Positions 40,828-57,462 of a DNA stretch of 64,000 bases are shown one piece after another (the stretch's first letter is position 1; every line of letters begins with the position of its first letter). The DNA comes from a virus: the IMG/VR virus record IMGVR_UViG_3300024270_000061; one strand, given 5' to 3'. Position numbers and translations under genes: made by a program. Below the pieces are notes generated by a model. That model saw nothing but the letters and a program-made list of their open reading frames with translations. It was not told the DNA's origin and searched no databases.

Positions 40828-40835
40828 ATTACGGG

Positions 40836-41042: not shown

Positions 41043-41053
41043 ACTGCGTCTCC

Positions 41054-41838: not shown

Positions 41839-41914
41839 TGGTCTTCCTGGCGGGACTCGAACCCGCGACTCCTTGATTAAAAGTCAAGTGCTCTACCAAC
41901 TGAGCTACAGGAAG
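41839..41914 (-). tRNA. tRNA-Lys (UUU), CCA encoded
   Basis: RC: CTTCCTGTAGCTCAGTTGGTAGAGCACTTGACTTTTAATCAAG...GGTTCGAGTCCCGCCAGGAAGACCA. Confidence 0.85.
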
Positions 41915-41918
41915 GTAA

Positions 41919-41993
41919 TGGCGGCTCGTCAGGGATTCGAACCCCGAACCTATCGGTTAACAGCCGAGTGCTCTACCTTTGAGCTAACGAGCC
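41919..41993 (-). tRNA. tRNA-Asn (GUU), CCA encoded
   Basis: Anticodon loop CTGTTAA; T arm GGTTCGAATCC. Confidence 0.8.
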
Positions 41994-42031
41994 ATGATGC
42001 CACCGCCATTGTCGTAGAGGTGGCAAACAGA

Positions 42032-42223
42032 TTAGAATAACCGCTTTCCGCAAGTCGGGCAGCGGTAGATGGTGAAATTTCCGATCTTATAATCGGTTCC
42101 ATTGGTTTTGCAGTTGATCGGAAGATATTCGTTATCCCATTTCAGGCGATGGATTTCTCTTCCGTTCTTATCGACTTCGGCAACATATGGAACATAGCCT
42201 TTCGGATTGCATACACTGCACAT
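42032..42223 (-). CDS. zinc-ribbon small protein
   Basis: CSVCN ... CPTCGK. Confidence 0.35.
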   Translation of the reverse strand: MCSVCNPKGYVPYVAEVDKNGREIHRLKWDNEYLPINCKTNGTDYKIGNFTIYRCPTCGKRLF

Positions 42224-42536
42224 AAATCACGCACCTTCTTCCAGAAGATCGTCTTCAGTCATTTCATCCATGTCGCTTCTCATCGCCTGAAGTTTTCTCT
42301 GATCCGAAATCTTGTTGCTGGACATAGAATTCGGGCTACCTCCCCATGACTTGCGGGGATTGCACATACAGCAGGAGCAGTGAATCTTGTTCTTGGAATA
42401 TTGATGAAGATTGTCATACCAGTCTCCACCCATAATGTTCCTGACGATGGAACGCTTGCGTTTTGCATGTTTCCAATCCATCTTTCTGGAACGACCTCTG
42501 TTATTCGGCTTCATGCTATCACTCCTTGCTAAAGAA

Positions 42537-42629
42537 TGGCGGAAGGTGTGAGATTCGAACTCACGGTGCCCGAATTTCAGGCACGCCTGATTAGCAATCA
42601 GGTGCATTAAGCCACTCTGCCAACCTTCC
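42537..42629 (-). tRNA. tRNA-Ser (GCU), class II, CCA encoded
   Basis: Anticodon loop TTGCTAA; long variable arm. Confidence 0.8.
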
Positions 42630-42632
42630 AGA

Positions 42633-42707
42633 TGGAGCTCCCATTCGGATTTGAACCGAAAACCAATCGCTTACGATGCGATTGCTCTGCCGTTGAGCTA
42701 TAGGAGC
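42633..42707 (-). tRNA. tRNA-Thr (CGU), CCA encoded
   Basis: Anticodon loop ATCGTAA; T arm GGTTCAAATCC. Confidence 0.75.
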
Positions 42708-42975
42708 ACTTGTGTCTACAATTTCAATCGAACTTCCGATTTCTTCTCCAGCGCCTGCACCAACAGAAATCGCAATCCAGATACCCGACACGATGCCCGT
42801 CGATTTTGCACACCGAAGAACCATGCGCCACATGTTCTCGATTGCCACAACTTCCGCAGCAGCGCCCTTCTCTTACGTCGTCTGAAGCGTATACTTTCAG
42901 GCCGTTGTTGCTATTGCGAGTATCATAAGAAAGACATATGAGCAACGAGAACACCTCCTAAAATGATTGATGAAA

Positions 42976-43052
42976 TGGAGCCGGATATGGGACTCGAACC
43001 CATGACCCTGCGCTTACAAAACGCACGCTCTGGCCATCTGAGCTAATCCGGC
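42976..43052 (-). tRNA. tRNA-Thr (UGU), CCA encoded
   Basis: Anticodon loop TTTGTAA; T arm GGTTCGAGTCC. Confidence 0.75.
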
Positions 43053-43057
43053 ATGTG

Positions 43058-43133
43058 TGGTGGCCTCTGCTGGTAACGATCCAGCCTCCGTAGATTTTCA
43101 GTCTACTGCTTTCACCATGTAAGCTAAAAGGCC
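43058..43133 (-). tRNA. tRNA-Phe (GAA) candidate with atypical T-loop ATCGTTA
   Basis: RC: GGCCTTTTAGCTTACATGGTGAAAGCAGTAGACTGAAAATCTAC...GCTGGATCGTTACCAGCAGAGGCCACCA. Confidence 0.5.
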
Positions 43134-43140
43134 AAGTAAA

Positions 43141-43217
43141 TGGTGCCGAGGGTGGGACTTGAACCCACAAATCGCAGATTTTGAGGCTGCTTCCTATGCC
43201 ATTTCGGATACCCCGGC
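43141..43217 (-). tRNA. class-I tRNA with a CAA anticodon in loop CTCAAAA (identity ambiguous), CCA encoded
   Basis: RC: GCCGGGGTATCCGAAATGGCATAGGAAGCAGCCTCAAAATCTGCGATTTGTGGGTTCAAGTCCCACCCTCGGCACCA. Short variable arm. Confidence 0.55.
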
Positions 43218-43380
43218 TTGTGTGTTTCCCGCTTAGATTGAACATTGTATCCTTTGGGTCACGGCTACTCAGATCAAGCCGAACATTTGCAACTGTCCAG
43301 TTCCAATGCTTTTCAGCGGACATTTTCATTCTCTGTGAGGAATCCACAACGCTCACATCAGCAGGGAGCGACCCTGCATT

Positions 43381-43463
43381 TGGTATGGATGAAGGGATTC
43401 GAACCCTTACGCTTACGCACTGGGACTTAAAACCAGCGTGCCTGCCAATTACACCACATCCAC
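43381..43463 (-). tRNA. tRNA-Leu (UAA) candidate, class II, CCA encoded
   Basis: Anticodon region CTGGTTTTAAGTCCCAG; variable-arm hairpin TGCGTAAGCGTA; T arm GGTTCGAATCC. Confidence 0.6.
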
Positions 43464-43739
43464 TTAGTCTATTTTGTTGCGCCATTCATCATAGCTGGGA
43501 GGAGACATACCCTCATACTCATCGCTGTTATGGTCAATTGCCCATTGTACGAGGAACAAAAGATACCGCTCCCAACGCACGTCATAATCGTCCAGCAATG
43601 CACAATTGGTCAACCTCATGCCACTTTGTTCGAGCCATCCGAATTCATGCTCAAGCATTTCTATCGGAGGAAGCTCGGCTGTTGGCTCCTCTTGATAATT
43701 GATAATTGCAACGAAGGTTCTTTCATCCACCGCTATCAA
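43464..43739 (-). CDS. hypothetical protein (91 aa)
   Basis: ORF. Confidence 0.4.
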   Translation of the reverse strand: MIAVDERTFVAIINYQEEPTAELPPIEMLEHEFGWLEQSGMRLTNCALLDDYDVRWERYLLFLVQWAIDHNSDEYEGMSPPSYDEWRNKID

Positions 43740-43806
43740 CCTTTCCTATGGAAAGGCACCCCGCCACAATGAACGGGGTGCCAAGAGAATATGTGTTTAT
43801 GTACAA

Positions 43807-45300
43807 TTAGTGCTTGTCGGCAATAGCTCCACCAAGCATACCGGACAGCAGAGCCATCAGATCCAGACCGGTTGCATCCTTGAAGCCGTCTTGCACCTGC
43901 TTCATACCGGTCGTAACCGTGCCGGTCAGATTGGAGGTGCCGCCCTCGTAGATGGTCATGTTGTCGATGCTTTCCATGGGCTTCGCAATTGCCGCTGCAA
44001 TGTCCGGCATGGTCTTGACGTATTCCAACGCGACGTCCAGAACCATCTGCTGCTTCGCGGCATCGTCGTATTCCTTCATGGCTTCCGCCTTCTTCAGAAT
44101 ACCAACAGCTTCAGCCTCCGCTTTAGCCTGGATGGCTTCGGCTTCAGCGCGACCCTTTGCGGCAACGCCTGCCGCCTCGTTCTCCATAGCAATACGCTCT
44201 GCTTCGGAACGCGCCTTTTCGGCGGCGGCTCTTTGTTCAGCTTCGAACAGCTCAGCGTCTGCCTTCTTCTGTCGCTGGAAAAGCTCAGCCTCTGATGCCT
44301 TCTGAAGTTCGTACAGACGAGCGTCGGCTCTCTGCTGAGCAGCATACTTGTCTGCTTCAGCCTTCTTCTTGATCTCGGCATCCAGAGCGCGTTCACGGAT
44401 GGCGACTTCACGTTCCTTCAGCTCAATCTCCTTTTCCAGACGAGCCAAGTTAGCCTCGGCAGTCTTAGTTTCGATAGAAGCACGCTGTTCCTGCTCCTGA
44501 ATGGAATAAGCAGCATCGGCTTCTGCTCGCTTGGCATCCTCGATCTTTTTCAGTTCGGCTCTCTGGATTGCCAATTCGTTCTTGCGCTTAGCAATCTCTT
44601 GCTCAGACTTGACCTGAGCTTCGTTGGCAGCCATAGCGGCCTGCGCTCTGGCAATGGCAATTTCCTTTTCGGCCTGAGCCTTGGAAACAGCCGCATCCTT
44701 GGAAATCTGAACCGTGTTTTCCAGACCCAGATTATCAATGACGCCGTTGCGATCCTTGAAGTTCTGGATGTTGAAGGTGGTCAGCTCCAAGCCCATATCA
44801 CGCAGATTGGGCGTTACGTTCTCAATGATGCGTTCAGCGAAAGTCTTCTTGTCGCCCTGAATGAGTTCTTTCAGAGTGGTCTGAGAAATAATTTCGCGGA
44901 TGTTGCCTTCGAGAACGGGAGTGATGATTTCCTTGATTTGCTCGGGCTTATAGCCAAGGAACTTGGATGCTGCAATCTTCAGCAGTTCGGGTTCTTTGGA
45001 AATCGCCACGTTGGCCACCGCATCAACCATAATATTGATTGCGTCCTTGGTGGGAATCTCATCGCGGGAAGTAAAGTCGGACTGAATGTTTTCGAGCGAC
45101 ATGTAGTCAACTCGCTGGATAATGGGGATGACAAGAGCGCCCTGACCAATGATGGTTCTCGAACCACGCGGGCCGGTGATGACCATTGCAATGTTCGGGG
45201 GAGCCTTCTTGTACATAACCTTGCCGATGAAGACAACCAAGAGGACTGCGGCGATGAAACAACCAACAAAAACAGCGGCAGACATGATAGATTCGAGCAT
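43807..45300 (-). CDS. flotillin/SPFH (band 7) family membrane protein with a long EA-rich coiled coil
   Basis: N-terminal TM helix, an SPFH-like core (ITGPRGSRTIIGQGALVIPIIQ...) and a roughly 200-aa A/E/K-rich coiled coil. AAAGGAGA RBS. Confidence 0.75.
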   Translation of the reverse strand: MLESIMSAAVFVGCFIAAVLLVVFIGKVMYKKAPPNIAMVITGPRGSRTIIGQGALVIPIIQRVDYMSLENIQSDFTSRDEIPTKDAINIMVDAVANVAISKEPELLKIAASKFLGYKPEQIKEIITPVLEGNIREIISQTTLKELIQGDKKTFAERIIENVTPNLRDMGLELTTFNIQNFKDRNGVIDNLGLENTVQISKDAAVSKAQAEKEIAIARAQAAMAANEAQVKSEQEIAKRKNELAIQRAELKKIEDAKRAEADAAYSIQEQEQRASIETKTAEANLARLEKEIELKEREVAIRERALDAEIKKKAEADKYAAQQRADARLYELQKASEAELFQRQKKADAELFEAEQRAAAEKARSEAERIAMENEAAGVAAKGRAEAEAIQAKAEAEAVGILKKAEAMKEYDDAAKQQMVLDVALEYVKTMPDIAAAIAKPMESIDNMTIYEGGTSNLTGTVTTGMKQVQDGFKDATGLDLMALLSGMLGGAIADKH

Positions 45301-45409
45301 TCTGATTCTCCTTTGGTTCTATTTAAGTTCCCGCTGATACCAGCTCCGAGGATCACCCATCGCCCTGATAAGACTAATGCGAAAACCTTGAATCGGAGAT
45401 TTGATATAG

Positions 45410-45502
45410 CTTTAACCCTTGACCCTTAACGCTTGAGCTTTATTGCGTATAAACTTTAATGCCTAAGCCTTACACTTTGAGCTTTATGCTTTGAGCTTTG
45501 AG
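45410..45502. repeat. degenerate tandem heptamers (CTCAAAG on the minus strand; GCTTTGAG / CCTTAAC on plus) upstream of the flotillin gene
   Basis: Plus strand: ...cccttgacccttaacgcttgagctttatt...ctttgagctttatgctttgagctttgag. Confidence 0.7.
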
Positions 45503-45530
45503 ACAAAAAACAAGCGCTCCTGGCTTGTTT
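45501..45530 (-). terminator. Rho-independent terminator
   Basis: Stem AACAAGC/GCTTGTT with loop GCTCCTG, followed on the minus strand by TTTTTTGT. Confidence 0.7.
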
Positions 45531-45673
45531 CTCTATGCTTTGCATAGCATCTTCATATTATATCGCAACCCAAATGCGTTTCCCTGTTTACATTTATTTG
45601 GCATTCGTCCAAACAGGGGAAAGTGTCGAATGAGCCTATCGTTTAGGGTTTTCAGTAACAGCGGAATCTTATT

Positions 45674-46321
45674 TTACTTGGTATCGTAGCTGACAGTGAT
45701 GGTAGTCAGCGCATTGCTTACGCTCAGCGCAGCATCAATTTCAGCATCGAAAGCATCGATCTGCTCACTGAGCTGTTCGACCTTGGCTTTGATGTCAAGG
45801 GGATCGACCATATCCAGAGAGTTCATTTCGATGTATGCTTCACGGGTCTTAATGGCTTCGTCACTCTTTGCCTTTTCACTGTTGGCAAACAGGCCGGAAA
45901 CATAGGCGTCTGCCTTAGCCTGAAGCTCATCTCCGTTGGTGCGCTTGAAGTCCAGCGTTGCGGCAGCGAACTGCACTGTCATCTGCTTGACAAGCAGACG
46001 CAGGTTTTCCATGCCGGTCTTCTTCATCTCAATGGCTTCTGCAACCGTATAGGACTTGCCGCCAATGGTCACTTTGGTCTGGGCATTGGAGATGGACAGC
46101 GCATTACGGATCGCCGCTCTGCGATTGATACGAGCAATGATGCTTTCATAATCGCTCTTCATGCCATCCTTGTAGTCACCGACAGGCTTGCCGGCAATCT
46201 TATCATTAGAATGCTTGTTCGTGGTAATAAAAGTCGTGCCACGAATCTGATTCTGGATTCGATCATCCAGAATCTTGAGGGTGCTGAGAGCCTGATGGAC
46301 AGTCATGGTTTCCGTAGTCAT
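45674..46321 (-). CDS. hypothetical protein (215 aa)
   Basis: ORF. Confidence 0.5.
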   Translation of the reverse strand: MTTETMTVHQALSTLKILDDRIQNQIRGTTFITTNKHSNDKIAGKPVGDYKDGMKSDYESIIARINRRAAIRNALSISNAQTKVTIGGKSYTVAEAIEMKKTGMENLRLLVKQMTVQFAAATLDFKRTNGDELQAKADAYVSGLFANSEKAKSDEAIKTREAYIEMNSLDMVDPLDIKAKVEQLSEQIDAFDAEIDAALSVSNALTTITVSYDTK

Positions 46322-46349
46322 GTAAATACCCCTTCCTTTTCTTCTGAGT

Positions 46350-46424
46350 TGGCTGTGGCGGTTGGGTTCGAACCAACGAATGCGGGAGTCAAAGTCCCGT
46401 GCCTTACCGCTTGGCTACGCCACA
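46350..46424 (-). tRNA. tRNA-Gln (UUG), CCA encoded
   Basis: U1-A72; anticodon loop CTTTGAC; T arm GGTTCGAACC. Confidence 0.8.
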
Positions 46425-46427
46425 ATG

Positions 46428-46502
46428 TGGTGGAGGATAAGGGGCTCGAACCCTCAACCTTCCGCTTGCAAAGCGGATGCTCTACCTTTGAGCTAATCCC
46501 CC
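46428..46502 (-). tRNA. tRNA-Ala (UGC), CCA encoded
   Basis: G3-U70 identity pair; anticodon loop TTTGCAA. Confidence 0.85.
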
Positions 46503-46783
46503 AGGTTGCACAGCGACCAATCTTCATCTCCAATGTCATGCTGAATTAAGGTGGACATGGAACAAGCGTCCTTGCGTGAGCTCCCACAGGCCAAGTGCCA
46601 TATCTCTCAATGTTCTATTAGCCCTTAATCCCTCTGCGTAATTCGTCTTATGAGTGCATTCCATCAGTTAGAAAAACCGATCCTGCGCATGGCGGCTTCT
46701 ATTCAGTTTTGAAAGGACGTATAAAGCCGCAACGGTAGTCCGTTTTCGCAGCTACGGATGTCTAATTTGTGCTGCGTCAGCGT

Positions 46784-46857
46784 TGCGCCCGAAGGGAATC
46801 GAACCCTTGACCACGCAGTTTCCCCTGCGTGACTCTACCAACTGAGTTACGAGGCGC
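46784..46857 (-). tRNA. tRNA-like gene with an aberrant 6-nt anticodon loop (GGGAAA) and no encoded CCA; possible pseudo-tRNA
   Basis: RC: GCGCCTCGTAACTCAGTTGGTAGAGTCACGCAGGGGAAACTGCGTGGTCAAGGGTTCGATTCCCTTCGGGCGCA. Good D and T arms; 7-bp anticodon stem with a 6-nt loop. Confidence 0.45.
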
Positions 46858-47044
46858 ATAGAAACCTCTGATACTTTTTCATCGCTTGTTTTCACAACCC
46901 TGAATCAATTAACAGGAAACGGTTTAATGTTATCAGAGGCGAGACGACCTAAGCCTTTTTGCCGTTAGAAAGCATTATCTTGTCGCCTGGAGGGGCGGAT
47001 TTTCTCATGCTCCGCCATACAAGGAACCCTGAATCTAACTGGGT

Positions 47045-47121
47045 TGGCAGGGGAAGAAGGATTTGAACCCTCATCTACATCTGATTTGGAATCAGGAGTT
47101 TTTCCGTTAAACTATTCCCCT
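47045..47121 (-). tRNA. tRNA-Trp (CCA), CCA encoded
   Basis: Anticodon loop TTCCAAA; T arm GGTTCAAATCC. Confidence 0.8.
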
Positions 47122-47179
47122 TCGTAAGCGACTGCCGAAACAACCGCTACTTTTGATAGACTTACGCCTTTATGATGGC

Positions 47180-47256
47180 TGGCGCACCAAGAGGGACTCG
47201 AACCCCCGACACATGGCTTAGAAGGCCAATGCTCTATCCATCTGAGCTACTGGTGC
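47180..47256 (-). tRNA. tRNA-Arg (UCU), CCA encoded
   Basis: Anticodon loop CTTCTAA; T arm GGTTCGAGTCC. Confidence 0.8.
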
Positions 47257-47261
47257 AGAAG

Positions 47262-47335
47262 TGGAGCACCGTGCGGGAATCGAACCCGCGACACATACTT
47301 GGAAGGAACGTGTTTTGCCACTAAACTAACGGTGC
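47262..47335 (-). tRNA. tRNA-Gly (UCC), CCA encoded
   Basis: Anticodon loop CTTCCAA; T arm GGTTCGATTCC. Confidence 0.75.
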
Positions 47336-48123
47336 GCAGTTATGATGTCAACCACAGGAATTCTAAGTTTCCTGCACCATTTTTTAACTGAGTTGCCCGT
47401 TACGTTATATTTGCGACCAACTGCGCACAGGCTCTTCAGCTGTAAAATATCTTTAATTAGATCGTCTCTGGTAGGAATACATCCATTTTTCATTTGTGCA
47501 ATATGAGAACACTTTATGGAACAATACTTCTGACCTTTGGAGCGACTTTGAAATACTGAAGAACACACTCCGCATACTCTTTTACCGCACTGGATATTGC
47601 TATCGATTGGCCTCAGTTTGTCTTTACTGACCAACTTTCTATATACGGATTGAGTTCTTATCGGGTATTCAATGTCATCCATCACCCAGCTATCGCCTCG
47701 ATTGATCGAACGTACCATACTACCTGAAATGCCAACAATATCGCCAATCTCATCCGTAGAATACGAAGTAGTTTTCAGCATATCGACTATTTTGCTGTAT
47801 AGCTCATTCGTCATAATATTACTGTGGCCATCTTGTCCTCCCGGAGTCGAATTGTAACCATTCGGAACCATGCTGTTGTAATACGAAATCCAGTATCTTT
47901 CCTTTTCATTGAGTTCGGACGTTAAACAGCTTTCTACCACCTCAAACGAGAAATTTTCTATCCCGTATTTTGCAAAGGCCTTATATAGTGGAAGATGCAG
48001 CAATCTTTCTTCATGCGCCGACTTATGATTATTCCATCTTTTTGATATACACCTGGATTGTCCTATGTATATCTTACCGTTAATCCGATTTTGAATCTTA
48101 TAGATCCCAATTTCTTTCGCCAT
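47326..48123 (-). mobile_element. GIY-YIG homing endonuclease gene inside the tRNA cluster
   Basis: GIYKIQNRINGKIYIGQS ... NGYN motifs. Its 3' end overlaps the 5' end of tRNA-Gly by about 10 nt. Confidence 0.8.
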
Positions 48124-48154
48124 TTCGTTATCCTACTCATAATGAATTGCTATT

Positions 48155-48231
48155 TGGTCTGGCTGACAGGATTTGAACCTGCGACCTCGTGATCCCAAAT
48201 CACGCCATCTACCAAACTGATATACAGCCAG
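48155..48231 (-). tRNA. tRNA-Pro (UGG), CCA encoded
   Basis: Anticodon loop TTTGGGA; T arm GGTTCAAATCC. Confidence 0.8.
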
Positions 48232-48237
48232 ATACTG

Positions 48238-48322
48238 TGGTGGGCGGAGGTGGATTTGAACCACCGCATCCAGAGGAGCCTGATTTACAGTCAGGTGCCT
48301 TTGACCGCTCGGCCATCCGCCC
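48238..48322 (-). tRNA. tRNA-Tyr (GUA), class II, CCA encoded
   Basis: Anticodon loop CTGTAAA; long variable arm. Confidence 0.8.
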
Positions 48323-48335
48323 ATGAATTGCGGTG

Positions 48336-49019
48336 TTACCCGCAAATCTTATTTGTTACAAGGTCGAAATCAAAAGAATCTCGATGGCCATCCGTGCTAC
48401 ACAGAGATTCATCACCAGTAATAACACGGACAACTTTATGGTCATCGTTCCATGTTTCAGATTTGAGGAACACCGGGAAAGAATCGAGAATCTTCTTTTC
48501 ACGAAAGCCGCCATTGCGGTCAACGATTTCACAAATACGGCTTGTATGTCGGGATTCAATATACGGGTCAATACGAAGAACGGAAGCGTAACGAATGCTT
48601 CTTTTCTTGTGATGAGAAATCCATTCCCGAATCGATGCCAAGTCCTCATACTTTTCAAAGTAAGAACACTGGAGTTTCTTCTCCATGCCGACTCTTTCAT
48701 AAGCAATGAAGTTGAATCGACCAGGGTAGTTTTCATCCGTAAAAGGATAATGCATCGAACTCTGGATGCAGAAGATATACCCTCTGTACATGAAGGTGAC
48801 ATAATAAGTTGCATAGCCTATATGTGTTTCACCTGTCCTGTGGCACACACTGCTATGCCCTATCATTTCACAGTTCATATGATGGATGACACGCTTTTCA
48901 GGGCAGGTGAGGAGCAAAACTTGAGGATTCTTTTCGAGTTCTCGTATAATGCCGCAAAACTCCAGATCTTTCTGAAGCATTACATCGCTATAAAAGAGCT
49001 GTTTCATGATGTGTTTCAC
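48336..49019 (-). CDS. hypothetical protein (227 aa)
   Basis: ORF; His/Cys-rich segment HHMNCEMIGHSSVCH. Confidence 0.45.
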   Translation of the reverse strand: MKHIMKQLFYSDVMLQKDLEFCGIIRELEKNPQVLLLTCPEKRVIHHMNCEMIGHSSVCHRTGETHIGYATYYVTFMYRGYIFCIQSSMHYPFTDENYPGRFNFIAYERVGMEKKLQCSYFEKYEDLASIREWISHHKKRSIRYASVLRIDPYIESRHTSRICEIVDRNGGFREKKILDSFPVFLKSETWNDDHKVVRVITGDESLCSTDGHRDSFDFDLVTNKICG

Positions 49020-49021
49020 TC

Positions 49022-49408
49022 CTATTCAACCTCAGTCCAACCGTTTCGCTGAATGATGCGTCGCATGTTTCCCGCACCGACTGGGTTCATACTGTGAATC
49101 CTGATGGGATAGTTACGACCAGTTTCTTCGAGCCAGTCAAGGAGCTTGATATAATCTCCCCCATTTACGGCAAAAGTGCCCGCATCATGATCTATGTCAA
49201 TAACTTCGATTTTAAGAAGGTTCTTCAATAATGATAGAGCGTTTGCTCTGTGGAGAGGCGCTTCCGCGAACATTTCTTTGTGTGCATAAATACCACATTT
49301 CGCATATTGAGTTTCTAACTCAATTATTGCTGCCTTTGCAACATTCACGCTTCTGATCCACAAATACCCATCTGGAGCAGGACGAGTATCGTCAATCCAT
49401 AGCTTCAT
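49022..49408 (-). CDS. CheY-like receiver (REC)-like domain protein
   Basis: KLWIDDTRP ... IEVIDIDHD ... GGDYIKLLDW pattern. Confidence 0.4.
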   Translation of the reverse strand: MKLWIDDTRPAPDGYLWIRSVNVAKAAIIELETQYAKCGIYAHKEMFAEAPLHRANALSLLKNLLKIEVIDIDHDAGTFAVNGGDYIKLLDWLEETGRNYPIRIHSMNPVGAGNMRRIIQRNGWTEVE

Positions 49409-49646
49409 CGGCCATCGCAACCCCTCTCGAACACCTTTGAATTAACCCCATCGGAAATCAAAACCCGAGTTCCTTGGGAGAAAAAGCATTTCTGAGAATT
49501 CCATACGGCATCAAGGCTCGTCTCCTTGTCTCCATGCACTTCGTAAGTCGGACACTTGTTTATCAGCGAAACTGTAAACTTCTTTTCTTCGTTTACCATA
49601 CGCATTCTCCTATATAGAATTTCCCTGAAGAGGAGGCGCGGCAACA

Positions 49647-50306
49647 TTAAGTCGCCGCTTCCTCCTCGGAGCTCTGATTTTTAGATTGGATACGGAAGCC
49701 GAAACACACGCCATGCGTGCCGCTCGCGCCGCTGCTGCCGCTGCCGCCACCCGAATGGACAAGGCCGAAGTTCGCCGTGGAGCCGGTACCCGGAGAACGA
49801 AGCCAATAATAACAGTAATCGTTATTATCCACGCCGTATCCCTTTACCCGATTCCGGCGGAGCTTGTAGATGTCCAGCTGAGTATCTTCAGGCTCCATGT
49901 CTTTGATGCGCTGGTTCTTACCGAACATCTGCGTGTAGGACAAGCAAAAGAGCTTGTCTTCGCATTCAATGCGTTCACCATTGATACACTGGACAATAGT
50001 AGTAGGAATAATGACCGCCTGCAGATCGTCGGGAAGGAGCTCGAAAACCTCCTGGGCATACTTGCGCATCTTGCAATCACGCCAACCGCCGCGATTGGTA
50101 TCGCGGTCGTTCATATTGTGAGGTTCTTTCAGACAATCACGGAAAACAATGAACTGTTCTCCCTTTTCATCATGGGCAACTTCGAGATCGACTCGCTCAT
50201 CATTCTTGAGCGTAATCGAAATGACGTCTCCGCTCGCAAGAGAATCGAACTCTACGATGTCCGCCCAAGACACCGTTCTTCCAATCTTGGAAATGACAGA
50301 AACCAT
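49647..50306 (-). CDS. hypothetical protein with a Gly/Ser-rich C-terminus
   Basis: ORF. Confidence 0.45.
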   Translation of the reverse strand: MVSVISKIGRTVSWADIVEFDSLASGDVISITLKNDERVDLEVAHDEKGEQFIVFRDCLKEPHNMNDRDTNRGGWRDCKMRKYAQEVFELLPDDLQAVIIPTTIVQCINGERIECEDKLFCLSYTQMFGKNQRIKDMEPEDTQLDIYKLRRNRVKGYGVDNNDYCYYWLRSPGTGSTANFGLVHSGGGSGSSGASGTHGVCFGFRIQSKNQSSEEEAAT

Positions 50307-50330
50307 TATCCATACCTCCCATTATCAGTA

Positions 50331-50579
50331 TCAGGCGGCAACTACGCGATAGACATCGACAGAACTGGGAATAGCACCGCCAGCGTCATTGACGAGGAAC
50401 ATCTCATCATTGAAATCCAGCGCGGCATACATGACGCCAATGATGGACTTGGCGTTGACTCGATGATCTCCATTGAAGTTTTCAATGGAAAAATCATCAC
50501 TGTGACTACACAGAGCCTGAACCAGACCCATAGCGTCATTTTGATTATTCAGTCGAATATGAGCTCGAATATGAGCCAT
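50331..50579 (-). CDS. HPr-like protein lacking the phospho-acceptor His (82 aa)
   Basis: MAHIRAHIRLNNQNDAMGLVQALCSHS...VNAKSIIGVM...NDAGGAIPS resembles HPr, but GLH(T/A)RP is replaced by GLVQAL. AAAGGAGAG RBS. Confidence 0.5.
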   Translation of the reverse strand: MAHIRAHIRLNNQNDAMGLVQALCSHSDDFSIENFNGDHRVNAKSIIGVMYAALDFNDEMFLVNDAGGAIPSSVDVYRVVAA

Positions 50580-51050
50580 TGAATATCTCTCCTTTATCTG
50601 TATGATGGAAATGCGCATATTTCCATCTTTCTTGTATATTAGCAAAAGTGACAGGGGTGCCAAACAGATGGAAAAATCGCGCTTTTCAGGCATGGTCAGA
50701 ATCAAACAGTTGGATTTTTCGCATCAGAAGGACGGTCATCAGGTTGTTCGATATACTCAAGGTAATCTTGTTCAGATGCAAAGAGGATCATGTTATCCTG
50801 AACTCTTCCCATATATCCATGCTGCGTGAAGTATCCGTAAGGCATGATTGCACCTCCGATTTAGAACCAACTCGGTTCTAAAATTGAGTTCTGACACCTC
50901 GAAAAGCCTTGAAATACGGGACTTTTCAAGATTTGCCCCGTAAGGAAAAATGGTCACATTTCTTGTTCCTTTAGTAGACCATAGAAAGCCGAAGTTACGA
51001 GCTTCTTATAAGATCGTTTATCCAGCTTTCTTATGGCCAGAAGGAGGAAA

Positions 51051-52193
51051 TCACGGGTCGCCACGAAGGTCTGCTCGAATCATTCGGACAAGATTCACCT
51101 CGTACTTCTTGTTCAGATGATCGATGACGTAGGTGATGTAGTCCTTCTCGACCATCTTGTAATACGACTTGAGTCCATTTAGTGCGCAGACATCGTGCAG
51201 ATCCCATTTGATTCCGCGTTTTCTGTCCTGAATGTAATTGGTACACATTGCTTTGAAACGTTTCTTGGCCTGATACCCTACGGTAATCTGGTTATTCCTG
51301 TTCAGCATCAATCCAAGATTCCAGTTACGACCGGAGCTGGAACCGTACCTCGTCTTAGCAGACTTGATCTTGAACGGAGCATTGAATCGTGCAAGGGTCG
51401 CATCGATTTCCTTCACCATTCCCAAAGGGTCAAATTCGTATCTGCTGGAAATCTGAATATCGTCTGCGAAACGGGTATAAATAAAGCCCTTCTTGCGAAG
51501 AGCGTTGAAAAGGGCATGGTCGATGGGGATCATCATCAGGTTTGTCAGCATTGGAGAAATCGGAGTGCCTTGCGGAAGACCTCCATTCAGGAAACATAAG
51601 TCCATCGCTTTGCTGAGCACCTGCTTTCCCTTTTCGTCCTTCATGATTTCGCTGAAAGGAAAGATGATGTCCATCATTCCGAGGATAAACTCGATGGTCG
51701 TACTTCCGAAGAAATCGGAGAAGTCTGTCTTTTCGAACCACTTGCTTTCATTCGCCTGATGTTTCTTCATTGCATCAAGTGTATTGCGATGCTTCACATA
51801 GGCAAAAGCGGACGTGTGATACAACGCAAACATCTTATCTTCGAAGATGGACTTGAGTTCCCTCAGTGCTTCCATCAAAGGTTCATGCGGTGCATTGATC
51901 CAGCGAAGGCCGCCAGACTTCTTGGGAATTGGAAAGGTTTCGTAAAGAGAAGCACGCTTTGCGCCATACAGAGCTTCGTGCTTCTTTACAAACTCCTCTA
52001 AGACACGAATCATCGAAGGAATATCCGACCGGCGAACGACATCCTCATTGACTGTTTCATAGAACCTGGTGACTGTGGCTGAAACATCCTTTGACTCGGG
52101 TGAAATGTTATCGACGTTGACTTCACCCTTCAGGATTTCCTCCAGTGTTATCTGATGGGTTCTGGGAGTTTGCATTATAGTAATGTAAGGCAA
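51051..52193 (-). CDS. compact reverse transcriptase (380 aa), not of the DGR type
   Basis: RT motifs IPKKSGGLRWINAP, SAFAYVKHRNTLDA, GLPQGTPISP, RFADD. TTG start with AGGAGG 9 nt upstream. Confidence 0.85.
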   Translation of the reverse strand: MPYITIMQTPRTHQITLEEILKGEVNVDNISPESKDVSATVTRFYETVNEDVVRRSDIPSMIRVLEEFVKKHEALYGAKRASLYETFPIPKKSGGLRWINAPHEPLMEALRELKSIFEDKMFALYHTSAFAYVKHRNTLDAMKKHQANESKWFEKTDFSDFFGSTTIEFILGMMDIIFPFSEIMKDEKGKQVLSKAMDLCFLNGGLPQGTPISPMLTNLMMIPIDHALFNALRKKGFIYTRFADDIQISSRYEFDPLGMVKEIDATLARFNAPFKIKSAKTRYGSSSGRNWNLGLMLNRNNQITVGYQAKKRFKAMCTNYIQDRKRGIKWDLHDVCALNGLKSYYKMVEKDYITYVIDHLNKKYEVNLVRMIRADLRGDP

Positions 52194-52559
52194 TGCAAAT
52201 ACCTCCTTTACTCTTCATGATCTGCAATCTAACATATGTGGTGTGCCTGCTGCGCCAGCTGCTGAGGAGGTGTCTTCCAGGGACTGGGGAGCTTGGGAAC
52301 TCTGATGCAGGGCGTGCAGGTCTGGGGAGGTCAGGGTTTTGACGTGTCGAGGCGTTCGTTTGCCTGTGAGATCTTGGTTCTGAGATTGTGCGATGAGCCT
52401 CGGGACGTTGTGTGGCGTGAGTGTTCGAGCTGGAGTCGAGCCCTGAAGGCGCCATGGCCACTGGGAGGCAGGCCTCCGTCGTCCTGACCTTTTGTTACGC
52501 CGGATTACACCTCGACGCATTCAATCAAGAGATTGAATTATACATTGCAGATTTAGGTT
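52194..52559 (-). ncRNA. 366-nt GC-rich structured leader / candidate ncRNA upstream of the RT
   Basis: C-rich on the coding strand; no RBS-bearing ORF. Begins (minus sense) with TATAAT and the hairpin TCAATC-tctt-GATTGA inside the conserved element 52478-52538. Paralogous to 40145-40725. Confidence 0.5.
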
Positions 52560-53312
52560 TTACTTCAAGAGCTGATGAAGTTCATCAGTAATCTCTTTTA
52601 CCACTTCTTCAGGCGGAAGAACATAATAGTATCCGTCCAGCGGACTGAATTCAACGGAACACTCGCCATCGAGACGCAGGAAAGGAACGATGTTGCACTC
52701 TGAGGCAGGACAGTGATTAGCGAACCTTCCGCGACGATCTACGGCGCAGAGTCCAGTATTCACCGCAGTTCTGAACAGAAGGTTTACAGGTGTAACAGCA
52801 CCGCGAACGAAAAGAGCCAGCTGTTCGCCCTCGGTCAGATCTTCGCCACCATACAGCTGACTTCTGGACAGCATACTGACTTTGAGCGTTGTCTTGACCT
52901 GTTCCCCATACTTCCGCTTAAATCCGACGGGCACAGAAGTAACGATTTCATGGGGCGTAATCATCTTGCGCTCCCATGCTTCGAACAAACTCAGGAAACC
53001 GGGGCGATTCTTCAGAGTGTTATCAGCCACATCCGTTTCGTGCTGAGGCTTGAACCAGTCATTTTCACTGGCATTCAGGAACTGGCAGATATTCGTCTGA
53101 GGGAAGAAGTTACTTCCGCGTTCACGGCGGTCACGGCTTTCATTCTCAGGCTCCTGGGCATCAGCGCAGAACTTTCCAATGCCATCATTCACATAGAAAT
53201 CGTTCTGCTCAGATGCTTTTCTCCAAAGGAGGTTGATGGGTGTCCGCTCGCCGCTTCGGAGAAACTGACCAAAGACCAGATATTCTCCAACGGGAATTTC
53301 GGAAATCTTCAT
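52560..53312 (-). CDS. hypothetical Cys-containing protein (250 aa)
   Basis: AAGGAGG RBS; C-terminal FANHCPASECNIVPFLRLDGECS; no confident family. Confidence 0.5.
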   Translation of the reverse strand: MKISEIPVGEYLVFGQFLRSGERTPINLLWRKASEQNDFYVNDGIGKFCADAQEPENESRDRRERGSNFFPQTNICQFLNASENDWFKPQHETDVADNTLKNRPGFLSLFEAWERKMITPHEIVTSVPVGFKRKYGEQVKTTLKVSMLSRSQLYGGEDLTEGEQLALFVRGAVTPVNLLFRTAVNTGLCAVDRRGRFANHCPASECNIVPFLRLDGECSVEFSPLDGYYYVLPPEEVVKEITDELHQLLK

Positions 53313-53323
53313 GACTTACCTCC

Positions 53324-53995
53324 TTAAAAAGCGTCGATTGCGTAGCTAAACGCATCGGCCAGGATCAGCTTGCGAAGCGGGCCGCCCTTTGCAAAGTTGA
53401 TAAAGTTGGACACACCCGCCGCTACGATCATTCGAACCGTAGGCGCAACAGACAGGGTGATATTGCAGGCGGAAACCGGAGTCTCCTTCTTGGCTTCCTC
53501 GTGGGAGAATGCCATAGACTTCAGGAAGGCGTCCACCATTTTTTCATCATTCCATGCGGCAGCGTAGTGCTGAGCATCGGTCAGACGCATACGGAAATCG
53601 AACATGCCTTTGATGAAAGGATTGCCAACGCAAGCCTTGGCGATGTCGCGGCGGAGGTCGATATTATCCACACAGAGGAATACATAGCCAGAAAGGCGCT
53701 GGTTGGTATAGCCCTTATGTACCAGAACGAGGTCATCCTTCATTTCCGGATTGATCTTGAGCAGATATTCTGCGACTGCATCAACCTTCATCTTACCAAT
53801 GTCATCCTGCGTGAACATCTGATTGGCGATATTGTGAGCTTCGACCTTATCGAAGTCGTAAAGAGTGATCTTCGTCAGGCCAAAGCGAGCCAGGTTTTCA
53901 GCGACCGTGGAGCCGATAGCTCCACAGCCGATAATATGAATGCGCTCACGGCACATTTCGGGTTTGAAGAATTCATAAGACTTGGAAAGATCCAT
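53324..53995 (-). CDS. ThiF/MoeB/E1-like adenylyltransferase
   Basis: Rossmann IHIIGCGAIGSTVAENLARFGLTKITLYDFDKVEAHN; ATG 53995 preceded by GGGAGG. Confidence 0.7.
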   Translation of the reverse strand: MDLSKSYEFFKPEMCRERIHIIGCGAIGSTVAENLARFGLTKITLYDFDKVEAHNIANQMFTQDDIGKMKVDAVAEYLLKINPEMKDDLVLVHKGYTNQRLSGYVFLCVDNIDLRRDIAKACVGNPFIKGMFDFRMRLTDAQHYAAAWNDEKMVDAFLKSMAFSHEEAKKETPVSACNITLSVAPTVRMIVAAGVSNFINFAKGGPLRKLILADAFSYAIDAF

Positions 53996-54008
53996 GACTA
54001 AACCTCCC

Positions 54009-54281
54009 TTAGTTTTCTTCGTTGATGATGATACCACCTTGGATGATAACGCGCTTGCCGTTGATGTCGAAATATACTTCATCGGTGCTATCGCTAACAT
54101 CAAACTTGCCCGACCATGATTTAATCATGTCTCCGTCGTAGCTATAGACAGAAACGGTACGATTGAGGCCGCCGCCCCAGTTGCTTTCATACGACTTGAC
54201 AGTGCGCTTCCATCCTTCCGTGCAACCGGTAAGGCAAAAGAGCATCACGATCAGGACGGCAACGAGAATGATCTTTTTCAT
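54009..54281 (-). CDS. small lipoprotein
   Basis: Signal peptide MKKIILVAVLIVMLFCLTGC with lipobox LTGC. Confidence 0.6.
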   Translation of the reverse strand: MKKIILVAVLIVMLFCLTGCTEGWKRTVKSYESNWGGGLNRTVSVYSYDGDMIKSWSGKFDVSDSTDEVYFDINGKRVIIQGGIIINEEN

Positions 54282-54300
54282 GTGACTCATTCCCCTTTTC

Positions 54301-55287
54301 TTAAGTGTCAAATCGATGGTCGCCGAAAATTTCCTTATCCCAGTCTACGGAAGCATTGTTGCCGCCAAAGTATCCGGGATAGCCCGCCATGCTCATCTGG
54401 CTGGGTTCGGCACTGGCCTTTTCGGGATTCTTCGGAGGACGCCCCTTCTTACCCTTGGGCTTCTCTTCCCCTTTTTCCTTACCCTTGGGCGTGACATTGC
54501 CTTTCACGGGCTCGATCTTGGCAGGCTGCTTCACAGGCTCGTCATCATCCATATAGGCCAAACGGCTTCCGCCGTAGTTGCCGCCGTAATTACCACCGTA
54601 GCTTCCGCCATAGTTTCCTCCATATGCACTGCCCGGAGTATAGGTCTTGCGAGTGACCACATGGTCGGATTCGGCAATGAAAGATTCGACATCGAATTCA
54701 TCATTGGCAATGCTGACAACGATGTCCTTATCCTCGTACATGACATTGTTGGCGTAATCGTAAATCTTGATGGTGTGATCCAGACGCTTGTTCCAGATCA
54801 TGAAAATGTAGTAGTCATCATCCTTGAGCTGGGCAAGAATCTGCTGCTGGTGGTTGGTGTCAACACCGGAAGGAGAAGTTCCCATGTTGACGTGGGAATG
54901 ACCCTGCATACGCATGGCGTTATAGTAATCGTCATCCAGAGTCATCATCCACTTCTGATACTCTTCCTGGTCAGTGTTGACCGTAGAACCGGTGACGGTC
55001 TGAGGATAGACCACCACATCGGTAATGATGAAGGTATCTTCGTCTTCGCGCTTAACGGTGCCATGCCATGCGACCTCGGAATCGAAATGCTTCAGGAGAG
55101 TCAGCATCTTGACATAGGCCATCGGCGTGAAAACCACATATGCCTTCGTATCATCCTCACCGGTGTAATCAAAGCTCTTGGTAAAGGTAATCTTGCCATC
55201 GGACATCTTCGCATCCGTGACATTCTTGCGGAACTCCTCGACCATATTGTCGATATATTCCTTGGTCAGAAAAATCGGCTTAGACAT
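54301..55287 (-). CDS. JAB/MPN+ (JAMM) metalloprotease-domain protein with a G/Y-rich and K-rich low-complexity tail
   Basis: Exact JAMM spacing HSHVNMGTSPSGVD (HxH-x7-S-x2-D) with an upstream Glu (EVAWHG). GGNYGG repeats and lysine-rich C-terminus. AAGGAGG RBS at ATG 55287. Confidence 0.7.
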   Translation of the reverse strand: MSKPIFLTKEYIDNMVEEFRKNVTDAKMSDGKITFTKSFDYTGEDDTKAYVVFTPMAYVKMLTLLKHFDSEVAWHGTVKREDEDTFIITDVVVYPQTVTGSTVNTDQEEYQKWMMTLDDDYYNAMRMQGHSHVNMGTSPSGVDTNHQQQILAQLKDDDYYIFMIWNKRLDHTIKIYDYANNVMYEDKDIVVSIANDEFDVESFIAESDHVVTRKTYTPGSAYGGNYGGSYGGNYGGNYGGSRLAYMDDDEPVKQPAKIEPVKGNVTPKGKEKGEEKPKGKKGRPPKNPEKASAEPSQMSMAGYPGYFGGNNASVDWDKEIFGDHRFDT

Positions 55288-56743
55288 TTTCTTCCTCCTT
55301 CTTGGCATCCAAGCTGTTGAGATATTCGAGAGCTTCGACAGGAGTCACGTCTCGACCATCGGGCAGTCGGATGATGCGGTGGGTACTGGTAAATACATCG
55401 TTCAGGAAATAGCGGACAGTGTGAGCTTCGGCAAAATTCAAGCTCTTTGCGGAAGCCATGCACTGCTCGATGGCACCTATGAGATTTCCGTCCCGGATCA
55501 TCCTGTTGATGTACGATCTGTAATTACCCAAGCAGGCAAAATGCTGGATATGCGGATTCGGGATATAATCGATGAACTCGTCTCCATACTCGTAGAAACG
55601 ATGGGCCGATGCTTCTCCGCGCAGATCGATAATGTAGTTCGCGCACATCTTAACCTTCAGGATGGGTTCGTCCGAGAAAATGGCATCCAGCATCTTGCGT
55701 CGAACCGCAATATCCTCAAACTGAGGAAGGTAATCGTACCCGGTGTACAAGCAAGAACCGGTTTTGCGAATGTAGGTATTGTATTGTTCGGGGTCGAATA
55801 TTTCGAAGAAGGTTTTGACAGTAAACTCCATCTGACGCCCCCGCACACGAACGGGCATCAGGTTTCGGTTGCAGACAAAATAGTCGATCAGTTCAGATTC
55901 ATCAGATGCAGCTTCGATTGCCATTTCCTGGCCGGCCAGACGGATGTTCAAGTCATCGAGCATGGTCAGATATTCATGATACCTTCTATTCAGATTATCA
56001 ATCTGATTCTGGTAATCAGTGATCTGATCTTTAGTGCGCTGCATTTCTTCACGGCGACCGATCTTATCAAAATCGCCGATAACGTTCTTAATCATGTGCT
56101 CACGGAAATCGATTCGATCCGCCAGCAGGGAGAGAATACGCTCATACTCAGTAGCATTACGGAATGTAAGCGCATCAAGCAGGGAACCTTCCACTTCATC
56201 AAGCGGAATATCGGAGAAAAACCAGGGAAAAAGACGAGGAGTCAGGGACTGGAGGAGATGGAAGTTACAGAGCGTCAGGCCTTCGCACACAATGAAAGTT
56301 TCCTTGTCCTGCTCATTGATGTAAAAGCGGGCATTGAGCTTTCCACGATTCTGTACAAAAACCTGAAGGTCTTTTGCTTCATGGTAATTAGGGAATACCT
56401 TGGTAAAGCCGGATTCAGTGTTATCGTACAGGCTCAGGATGGCGGCATTGTCATTGGACGGGCCTACAAGATAACGAATCGAGAGGGTGTTGGCACCAAA
56501 GGGCACCGGAGAGATGCGCGTAAAAACGCCTGCGAGATTGGTAAAGGTATGCGAACCATATCCATAGGAATCGAAACTGCGAATAGACAGGTTTATGTCC
56601 GCACCGTTGGAGCGTCTATGAAGCAGGGCTCTCAGCGTTGCCAGAAAAGACCTGTCGTCATTAAAGTAATCGCCGTGAATCTTAAAGAATTCATTGGCGA
56701 TACCCCGTACCAACGGAGTCTCTCTGATCTTCTTATTAAACAT
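55280..56743 (-). CDS. hypothetical protein (487 aa)
   Basis: RBS AAGGTGGGTG; no family recognised. Confidence 0.5.
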   Translation of the reverse strand: MFNKKIRETPLVRGIANEFFKIHGDYFNDDRSFLATLRALLHRRSNGADINLSIRSFDSYGYGSHTFTNLAGVFTRISPVPFGANTLSIRYLVGPSNDNAAILSLYDNTESGFTKVFPNYHEAKDLQVFVQNRGKLNARFYINEQDKETFIVCEGLTLCNFHLLQSLTPRLFPWFFSDIPLDEVEGSLLDALTFRNATEYERILSLLADRIDFREHMIKNVIGDFDKIGRREEMQRTKDQITDYQNQIDNLNRRYHEYLTMLDDLNIRLAGQEMAIEAASDESELIDYFVCNRNLMPVRVRGRQMEFTVKTFFEIFDPEQYNTYIRKTGSCLYTGYDYLPQFEDIAVRRKMLDAIFSDEPILKVKMCANYIIDLRGEASAHRFYEYGDEFIDYIPNPHIQHFACLGNYRSYINRMIRDGNLIGAIEQCMASAKSLNFAEAHTVRYFLNDVFTSTHRIIRLPDGRDVTPVEALEYLNSLDAKKEEENV

Positions 56744-56841: not shown

Positions 56842-57462
56842 TTACATCACAGTGATGGTGTCGCTGATGGCCTTCTTCTCTTCCTTGACTTCGGTCAGAG
56901 CAGCTTCGAACTGCTTCTCAACCTTGTTCAGGTTCAGAACGGCGACGCCGATATGCTCTTCCGCCCACTTCTTCGCATCCTCGGTGCCATCGGGGATCAT
57001 CATGGTGATGGTCGCCTTGCCGTCCTTGGAAGACTGCGGGCCGAAAGCAGCGCCGTAGGCGTTGATGGAACCGGTGCCCTTCGCGGTAGTACCGATGCGG
57101 AAAACCTCCTCCTTCTTGCCGGCTTCACCTTCGAACAGGCTCAGGGTCTTGGGACGATACTTTTCCAGAGTCTTGATGTCGGCCAGGGAATGAGCAGACT
57201 CGATGACACAGGCAGAACCCGCAATCTTGATGTAGGCGGCGTTGTCAGCCTTGACGACGTTCAACAGGTAGCACTTCTCGGTGATACCGAAATCAGCGAA
57301 GGTCTTGTCCAGATCGCCGGCGCCCAGAGTGGAGCCATCCAGAGAGGTCATGCCGACGGTGTAGTCGATATTGTTGTTCTCCAGGGCGGTACGCAGGGTG
57401 GTGTTTTCGTCGATGATAACAGACTGGCGGGACAGATTGTTGCCGATAGTAACCTTAATCAT
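56842..57462 (-). CDS. hypothetical protein with a possible N-terminal beta-grasp (ubiquitin-like) region
   Basis: MIKVTIGNNLSRQSVIIDENTTLRTALEN...VGMTSLDGSTLGAGDLDKTFADFGI pattern. AAAGGAGA RBS. Confidence 0.35.
   Translation of the reverse strand: MIKVTIGNNLSRQSVIIDENTTLRTALENNNIDYTVGMTSLDGSTLGAGDLDKTFADFGITEKCYLLNVVKADNAAYIKIAGSACVIESAHSLADIKTLEKYRPKTLSLFEGEAGKKEEVFRIGTTAKGTGSINAYGAAFGPQSSKDGKATITMMIPDGTEDAKKWAEEHIGVAVLNLNKVEKQFEAALTEVKEEKKAISDTITVM

Follow-up and report, generated by a model that had tools for sequence, protein, structure and literature searches.

Introduction

To our knowledge, all characterised retrons are bacterial abortive-infection systems built from one reverse transcriptase (RT), one non-coding RNA (ncRNA) and one toxic effector. 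Here we describe an RT locus on a 64,000-nucleotide (nt) stretch of viral DNA (IMG/VR record IMGVR_UViG_3300024270_000061; the whole stretch is called the window below). It comprises a gene for an RT of 380 amino acids (aa), a 366-nt leader, a second ncRNA unit elsewhere in the window, and a neighbouring four-gene cassette related to ubiquitin-like (Ubl) conjugation. The locus probably represents a phage retron clade in which one RT works with several template RNAs, the leader being an msr-msd RNA from which multicopy single-stranded DNA (msDNA) would be made. An earlier model-made reading of the letters alone (the sequence-only reading) had noticed the RT, its leader and part of the neighbouring cassette; it had missed the second, orphan unit, the tandem multi-unit arrays of relatives, and the cassette as a set of four genes. 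Full-text literature searches turned up no account of retron arrays in nature, of the present phage clade, or of any coupling between a retron and Ubl, E1 and JAB proteins.

The closest described systems are the bacterial retrons of types I-A and II-A (Ec78/Eco7, Ec83, St85/Sen2). The phage RT shows sequence affinity to theirs, the msr-msd region lies just upstream on the same strand, and the RNA is likewise closed by an a2/a1 helix, with a G directly behind a2, stem-loops in the msr and hairpins in the msd. Unlike these retrons, the phage RT falls below the family cut-offs, keeps the VTG and NAxxH motifs only in part and carries an N-terminal extension of about 55 aa; there are several units per RT rather than one, the msd is long, and none of their effectors (ATPase plus HNH, NDT, and others) was found. 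Bacterial retrons reside on chromosomes or prophages, whereas the present element is carried by large, apparently virulent phages.

Two further systems bear on the comparison. In multitrons, tandem msr-msd units with distinct a1/a2 sequences were engineered so that one RT makes several RT-DNAs (PMC10370050). The present arrangement differs in being natural, in occurring across hundreds of metagenomic phage loci, and in having units that are positionally orthologous. The Staphylococcus jumbo phages MarsHill, Machias and Madawaska encode a retron-like RT for which no effector could be recognised; the long non-coding region ahead of it was proposed as the site of an ncRNA (bioRxiv 10.1101/2020.12.14.422802). 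That RT is longer (501 aa), has a different N-terminal domain, and is 27–28% identical to the present RT over two thirds of the protein. The covariance model of the msr described below (R1) gave no match in the jumbo-phage retron region, and no Ubl/E1/JAB cassette is annotated near it.

The reverse transcriptase

51051 to 52193, minus strand: open reading frame (ORF) of the retron-type RT, 380 aa, TTG start, about 55 more N-terminal residues than the Ec83 RT
52202 to 52208, minus strand: ribosome-binding site (RBS) AAGGAGG, 8 nt before the TTG of the RT, by sequence inspection

The ORF was recovered as the sequence-only reading had given it, with the motifs GLPQGTPISP and RFADD; in the translation these are read as GGLPQGTPISP and YTRFADD, together with IPKKSGGLRWINAP. 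The TTG start aligns with the ATG of MPYIT in homologues, where a GGAGG counterpart of the RBS sits ahead of the ATG. Searches of Pfam returned RVT_1 only (E = 1.8e-16). All of the 25 best PADLOC models were retron RTs, led by RT_II-A (1.1e-42) and RT_I-A (2.5e-36). The top NCBIfam model was retron_St85_RT, at 158 bits against a cut-off of 235, and retron models of the two collections gave 120–158 bits. By comparison, group_II_RT_mat reached 65 bits (cut-off 300) and Drt2 41 bits (1.3e-10; cut-off 390), and no diversity-generating retroelement (DGR) RT family was among the NCBIfam matches. The comparison with RT family models that the sequence-only reading had suggested was led by the retron models. 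Matches in the PDB agree: the Ec83, Ec67 and Ec78 retron RTs were best (6.5e-20 to 1e-17), the Kva2 and Ec86 RTs were also among the top matches, and a group II RT reached merely 5e-7. Because the best matches are retron RTs and yet the scores stay under the family cut-offs, the protein is, as judged from its sequence, a divergent retron-type RT that forms a new clade.

At least 552 metagenomic relatives of the RT were found, from human, ruminant and termite guts, and identical RT genes occur on metagenomic contigs of 173 kb and longer. Purifying selection is strong on both the RT and the msr. Among the phages of INPHARED, blastn with the locus gave no DNA match, and tblastn gave one relative with 42% identity, the unannotated faecal contig MT835544.1, which is the sole GenBank record with a member of this RT family. 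The clade appears to be confined to large gut phages. The sole relative in an isolate assembly (L166; 36% identity) lies on a 428-kb contig of Clostridiales Family XIII bacterium PM5-7, in which R1 found no msr; it could indicate a culturable host, or else a megaphage or plasmid.

The leader RNA

52220 to 52552, minus strand: retron ncRNA unit 1 (msr-msd), 333 nt with a2 and a1 included, from the minimum free energy (MFE) fold and covariance model R1
52544 to 52552, minus strand: a2 arm ATCTGCAAT, inverted repeat, 9-bp helix covarying over 33 leaders
52543, minus strand: candidate branching (priming) G, directly 3' of a2, an invariant alignment column
52519 to 52538, minus strand: msr hairpin H1, 7 of 7 pairs compensatory, 87.9% of cells paired
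52498 to 52517, minus strand: msr hairpin H2, 8 pairs of which 7 compensatory, 99.2% of cells paired, the best-conserved element
52229 to 52481, minus strand: msd (template) region, poorly conserved, ending in TATGTTAG beside a1
52220 to 52228, minus strand: a1 arm ATTGCAGAT, 26 nt ahead of the TTG of the RT

A gap of 366 nt (52194–52559) without a credible coding signal separates the start of the RT gene from the stop of the ORF before it (52560–53312); this gap corresponds to the same-strand, non-coding leader of the sequence-only reading. Its minus strand is rich in C and A, with a GC content of 0.55–0.60, a plus-strand GC skew of +0.24 to +0.27 and an AT skew of -0.31 to -0.35. It contains GTATAAT, the hairpin TTCAATC-tctt-GATTGAA and, at its end, AAGGAGG-N8-TTG; the last two had been noted as a perfect hairpin and an RBS, and the hairpin proved to be H1 of the msr. 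The RNAfold MFE structure of the 366 nt is closed by AUCUGCAAU (52552–52544) pairing with AUUGCAGAU (52228–52220) and has two 5' hairpins, H1 and H2. A repeat finder returned the a2/a1 pair as the longest inverted repeat of the region, so that the a1/a2 repeats which the sequence-only reading had proposed to seek in the folded leader are present, over 9 bp, and covary. R1 matches unit 1 at 52482–52553 with 67.1 bits (E = 2.5e-15).

The collected relatives of the RT comprised 12 viral loci, 80 metagenome loci and 73 loci from metagenome-assembled genomes (MAGs). In most of these loci, the best long-range inverted repeat found ahead of the RT gene shows the same layout of a2 and G followed at a distance by a1. 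The a2 sequences differ among loci (CTGTAAT, CTGCAAT, CTGTAAC, TTGATAT, CGTGAT, CTACGAT and others), and in each the next base is G. In the relatives a1 is located 18–32 nt before the RT start, and a Y-R-T-G-N-A-G motif stands ahead of it in most units. Over 33 distinct leaders, 98.9% of cells in a2/a1 and H2 can pair, against 29–45% when the partners are slid, a percentage that is inflated for the a2/a1 helix because a2/a1 helices were located through a complementarity search. H1 and H2 were not selected by complementarity, and chance alone would yield a perfect 9-mer complement in a stretch of about 330 nt only about 0.001 times. Compensatory change was seen in 16 of the 17 pairs of a2/a1 and H2 and, for a2/a1 alone, in all nine (33 leaders); on an msr-only alignment, H1 and H2 have 94.1% of their cells paired, with compensatory change in 14 of 15 pairs. 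The two alignments that cover the G after a2 (A4 and A5) show no other base there, and this G is present in all of the roughly 90 units listed. When whole units of eight orthologues were folded with RNAalifold, the structure contained a2/a1, H1, H2 and a further two hairpins in the msd, 20 of its pairs being compensatory, and the msd hairpins are kept through compensatory change among orthologous units. At the level of sequence and covariation, leader and RT have the canonical msr-msd architecture of a retron, with H2 as the putative recognition element of the RT.

The TATAAT at the start of the leader had been taken for a promoter box. The letters are there, inside the RNA and directly after a2, and they amount to the branching G with its conserved context G-N-A-T-A/T-A, so the promoter was rejected. 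A search of the minus strand upstream of the leader found no sigma-70-like promoter, and GTATAAT has no -35 partner.

The sequence-only reading had left two descriptions side by side, a retron-like and a DRT2-like RT/ncRNA pair. In a system like DRT2 (UG2), an RT likewise adjoins a structured template ncRNA without a separate effector gene, and here the stop-free leader would be copied into concatemeric cDNA that encodes a de novo (Neo-like) protein. The leader is indeed crossed by two long open frames, as had been observed, and the RT has the weak Drt2 match given above. However, the frames are as long as base composition leads one to expect in composition-matched shuffles (p = 0.46 sense, 0.30 antisense), long frames are not enriched among 48 homologous leaders, and the msd varies by insertion and deletion; no selection for an open frame was seen. 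The RT belongs to a different clade, its 41 bits standing against a Drt2 cut-off of 390 and 120–158 bits with retron models, and the RNA has the a2/a1 helix and branching G of retrons instead. The DRT2-like description is thus rejected at the sequence level on RT scores and open-frame shuffles, and its probability is negligible; the retron half of the original pair of descriptions stands, and the idea of a functional stop-free template falls.

The richness in C, or in GC, that had been attributed to the leader holds for unit 1. It is not a family trait, since the four bases are nearly equally frequent in a set of 80 non-redundant msd regions (A.24, C.28, G.25, T.24). A universal msd motif or composition was likewise rejected, as k-mer enrichment reflected orthology only.

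Further msr-msd units

40398 to 40726, minus strand: retron ncRNA unit 2, RT-less, a complete msr-msd about 10 kb downstream of the RT
40718 to 40726, minus strand: unit 2 a2 CTTCGCAAT, of a pair specific to unit 2
40717, minus strand: unit 2 candidate branching G, following a2
40398 to 40406, minus strand: unit 2 a1 ATTGCGAAG, of the same unit-specific pair
40737 to 40827, minus strand: tRNA-Ser(UGA), found by ARAGORN, ending 10 nt before the unit 2 a2, at the downstream end of the tRNA array
40299 to 40344, minus strand: partial msr-like element, H1 and H2 only, just after unit 2

When the leader was compared with the window by blastn, a second msr was found at about 40.7 kb, with 86% identity to the unit 1 msr over 50 nt. 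R1 matches it at 40648–40727 with 50.8 bits (E = 3.8e-11), and the fold of unit 2 (z = -2.96) has a2/a1, H1, H2 and a long msd rod. Processing of the tRNA 3' end could set the 5' end of the unit 2 ncRNA. For the region around unit 2, the only contig retrieved was identical to the window. The element at 40299–40344 was rejected as a third unit, with 16.8 bits from R1 (E = 0.021) and no a2/a1 partner on manual inspection; it may be a decayed unit or relic.

Among the relatives, R1 gave 189 matches in 75 loci and a further 75 in 51 MAG loci, all on the strand of the RT, and a manual count from the match table found two or more matches in 58 of the 75 loci. Most often, a single unit lies upstream of the RT and another two to four follow directly downstream, at a spacing of about 300 nt. 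Tandem units around the RT number from two to seven in the relatives, the maximum of seven being found in L057; sequence-only counts with nhmmer were far less sensitive than the covariance model and give a lower bound. Unit size is about 220–345 nt, with a long msd, and units group into positional orthologues across phages. Nearly every one of the roughly 90 units has a unit-specific a2/a1 pair of 8–14 bp; therefore, each would fold in cis. It appears that one RT serves several msr-msd units in this phage-specific retron clade, and the natural arrays of up to seven units break the one-template rule of characterised retrons.

In L013, a run of N at about 4560–4720 marks an assembly gap between two copies of the first half of an msr. 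The unit counts from metagenomes are taken as lower bounds because the repeated msr probably breaks short-read assemblies. Repetition of a different kind is seen in the jumbo phage Machias (L181, MW349128.1), where a hairpin element of 34–46 nt (ATTTCATGAATACGTGAAAT-like) occurs four times at 1396–2118, the last three at intervals of about 200 nt, within a 1.1-kb non-coding region upstream of the RT; an indication that multi-unit templates may not be confined to the present clade.

Variation of the msd

Between close relatives the msr hardly changes (divergence 0–0.047, mostly 0), and msd divergence ranges from 0 to 0.26. For unit 1 and its counterpart in L014 the values are 0.012 for the msr and 0.143 for the msd, and the zone that varies against the closest relative spans about 52235–52440. 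In two pairs of loci, L007/L012 and L008/L010, msd divergence reaches about 50% and is sharply bounded by the msr and a1, at an RT divergence of 0.04–0.10 at 4-fold sites. In several other pairs msd divergence is three to four times the synonymous level (0.17 vs 0.04, 0.14 vs 0.04), and still other pairs show the opposite (0.0 vs 0.19 and 0.14 vs 0.24 at 4-fold sites). Hypermutation of the msd by a mutator was considered and dropped, and we do not claim it, because the relation of msd to 4-fold-site divergence changes from pair to pair. What we claim is that the msd is under weak constraint and subject to recombinational exchange or replacement of cassettes.

The same data bear on the possibility that the element has no dedicated role and merely persists, the msd changing as error-prone cDNA anneals to its own locus or as msr repeats exchange sequence. 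The excess of msd over 4-fold-site divergence in several close pairs and the sharp borders at the msr and a1 would fit such selfish self-mutagenesis. The reversed pairs fit mosaic recombination better than a steady local mutator, and the occurrence of at least 552 gut relatives, together with strong purifying selection on the RT and msr, argues for a selected function. We regard this explanation as improbable.

The msd regions of relatives also differ by insertions and deletions, including changes of poly-A length. Some 110–120 nt upstream of a1 in L077, L085, L086, L087 and L089, the length of a poly-A tract in the msd varies among near-identical phages; the block is an insertion of up to 10 alignment columns, with 0–10 extra bases that are mostly A. 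This could be homopolymer slippage in the template.

A phage-borne RT beside a non-coding RNA with a variable middle might also be a DGR, with the leader as its template repeat (TR), or a group II intron RT, with the leader as intron RNA. A second copy or partner of the msd was found nowhere in the 64-kb window, nor outside orthologous units in any locus, which removes the DGR reading since no variable repeat (VR) is available; by inspection, moreover, msd differences fall at all bases rather than only at adenines, and include insertions and deletions. For the group II intron, the RT score is the low one given above, and Rfam (E-value mode) on 46000–56000 returned tRNAs only, placing the leader in no intron or other family. 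The outcomes that the sequence-only reading had named as speaking against a retron, an RT of group II intron or DGR type and a leader that is intron RNA or a TR/VR partner, were not what was found, and either identity is extremely improbable.

The ubiquitin-like cassette

56842 to 57462, minus strand: Ubl-domain protein, 206 aa, with an N-terminal ubiquitin-like beta-grasp (about 70 aa), then an invariant KADNAA motif and a C-terminal domain (about 130 aa)
55280 to 56743, minus strand: p487, a conserved protein of 487 aa with no known fold detected; invariant N396, H398, C404 and G406 (NPH...CLG)
54301 to 55308, minus strand: JAB/MPN+ (JAMM) isopeptidase (JAB335), HSHx7SxxD, RPN11 match with E = 1.9e-4, tail rich in Gly/Tyr and in Lys
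53324 to 54103, minus strand: E1-like ThiF adenylyltransferase, Pfam ThiF 4.2e-27, PADLOC CBASS E1-E2 adenylation domain 3e-19
52560 to 53312, minus strand: optional ORF of 250 aa, weakly DUF6273-like (Pfam, 17 bits, below the cut-off), between the E1 gene and the ncRNA in 15 of 56 loci

The E1-like/JAB block that the sequence-only reading had seen beside the phage-borne element is thus present as ThiF/E1 and JAB genes upstream, and belongs to a larger cassette. Upstream sequence of 3.5 kb or more was available for 56 loci. Of these, 55 have p487, JAB and E1 ahead of the RT and 54 have the 206-aa protein, with constant order and orientation. Synteny of the cassette holds at RT identities down to 44%, and even after a p487 of only 29% identity come a JAB-like gene and ThiF and then, beyond a gap of 330 nt, an RT with msr units. 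The genes downstream of the RT are not conserved. The E1 gene is called as 223 aa from an internal ATG in other assemblies. The predicted structure of p487 has a predicted local distance difference test (pLDDT) score of 91.6; for this model and its sequence, no structural or sequence relative was found, and neither a UBC nor another known fold was detected.

Bil (bacterial ISG15-like; BilABCD) is an anti-phage system of Ubl conjugation. The order of the cassette, Ubl / X / JAB / E1, matches that of the Bil operon, with p487 in the position of the E2. Like Bil, the cassette has a predicted Ubl, E1 adenylyltransferase and JAB deubiquitinase. Unlike Bil, it has in the place of the E2 a protein, p487, in which no UBC fold was detected and which is at most a putative E2; its Ubl continues after the invariant KADNAA into a C-terminal domain of about 130 aa and does not end in Gly; and, in contrast to a bacterial defence operon, it is encoded by phages and linked with a retron. 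The retron is in this way tied to a Ubl conjugation cassette instead of a toxin, and the cassette may fill the role of the effector.

Two minor features adjoin these genes. A second DUF6273-type paralogue is encoded at 49647–50306 (minus strand), so that the pair flanks the retron. Between the JAB and E1 genes lies a small lipoprotein-like ORF (54009–54311, minus strand) with a weak DUF5052/EexN-like signal peptide, which is missing from L013 and L014, loci that are otherwise collinear.

Proposed mechanism and role

In the mechanism that we propose, the RNA would close through a2/a1, placing the 2'-OH of the G at 52543 beside the end of the template (...TATGTTAG) just 5' of a1. A single RT probably recognises the shared msr hairpins, chiefly H2, and, by analogy with established retron biochemistry, would prime on the 2'-OH of the G and copy the msd into branched msDNA. 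The cassette and unit 1 probably share a transcript; no promoter-like site was found between the two. It is in this sense that we infer both the synthesis of msDNA and its biological role.

In characterised retrons, msDNA acts as a sensor of infection. Because of this, and because Bil is anti-phage, the role that we tentatively prefer, with somewhat less than even confidence, is that several msDNA-RT complexes serve as baits or sensors which control the Ubl / p487 / JAB / E1 machinery against co-infecting phages or host factors.

Several points weigh against the retron assignment or this role, beyond the inflated pairing percentage of the a2/a1 helix mentioned above. The RT scores under all curated retron family cut-offs of NCBIfam. 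VTG (in domain 7) and NAxxH typify retron RTs; in alignments with Ec83 and Ec67, VTG is replaced by N-L-G, with G alone retained, and NAKIH of Ec83 is replaced by AMKKH, with H alone retained. Inside the RT's own family the N-L-G and AMKKH positions, like the N-terminal 55 or so residues, are conserved. The phage of the window has no unit directly downstream of its RT. Searches with Pfam, NCBIfam and PADLOC found no known retron effector domain or toxin-like domain near the RT, and one locus (L005) has the retron without E1, JAB and p487. Finally, the synteny with the Ubl cassette could stem from shared ancestry of one phage lineage rather than from function.

It is possible, though doubtful, that the msDNAs are instead decoys against host defence, exonuclease-resistant molecules of arbitrary sequence that titrate defences sensing or processing single-stranded DNA, with a link to Ubl that is positional only. 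Such a role would suit an element whose surroundings are rich in counter-defence genes (for arrayed tRNAs, RNA repair and NAD+ salvage), and it would account for the weak constraint and unconserved composition of the msd, as expected if sequence is immaterial, and for the lack of a toxin-like effector domain. It leaves unexplained why there are several distinct units with conserved positional orthologues, why msd hairpins are held by compensatory change, and why the Ubl cassette is present in 55 of 56 loci.

The bait or sensor role has a more far-reaching form, which is speculative and unlikely: a multiplexed virus retron, with a constant msr as 'repeat' and a quickly replaced msd as 'cassette', whose msDNAs serve as sensors, guides or decoys mechanistically coupled to Ubl conjugation. 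The msDNA-RT complex could gate the Ubl/E1/JAB/p487 machinery or could itself be a substrate of conjugation. If this were true, it would be a new class of phage weapon uniting reverse transcription and protein tagging. Should msDNA synthesis be confirmed, the locus would be a natural counterpart of multitrons, with an RT pre-adapted to many templates in trans and useful for multiplex editing; the purpose of a retron for viruses would become directly testable, and reverse transcription would have its first possible link to prokaryotic ubiquitin-like signalling.

Genome context

The window belongs to a large phage whose genes all lie on a single strand, among them those for a DNA polymerase, primase, DnaB, NrdD, a CCA-adding enzyme and NAMPT. 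Directly downstream of unit 2 lies an NAD+ salvage cluster (37169–40124, minus strand) that encodes NAMPT (497 aa), a phosphoribosyltransferase (PRTase)-like protein (269 aa) and an isochorismatase/nicotinamidase-like protein (207 aa); it looks like a counter to NAD-depleting defences. An RNA-repair set at 32137–36711 and 20036–21112 (minus strand) comprises a Pnkp/RNA-ligase fusion of 735 aa, the CCA-adding enzyme, a nucleotidyltransferase and a second RNA ligase. The tRNA array holds 17 genes (40737–48322, minus strand) and is interrupted by a GIY-YIG homing-endonuclease gene (47326–48123). Together, the array and the RNA-repair set suggest a defence against anticodon nucleases. ARAGORN also called a tRNA-like gene at 46782–46858 with an 'anticodon' of two bases. 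A stand-alone cREC_REC (cyclic-phosphate processing receiver) protein is encoded at 49022–49420 (minus strand), 1.6 kb downstream of the RT, and is kept beside the retron in the closest relatives only.

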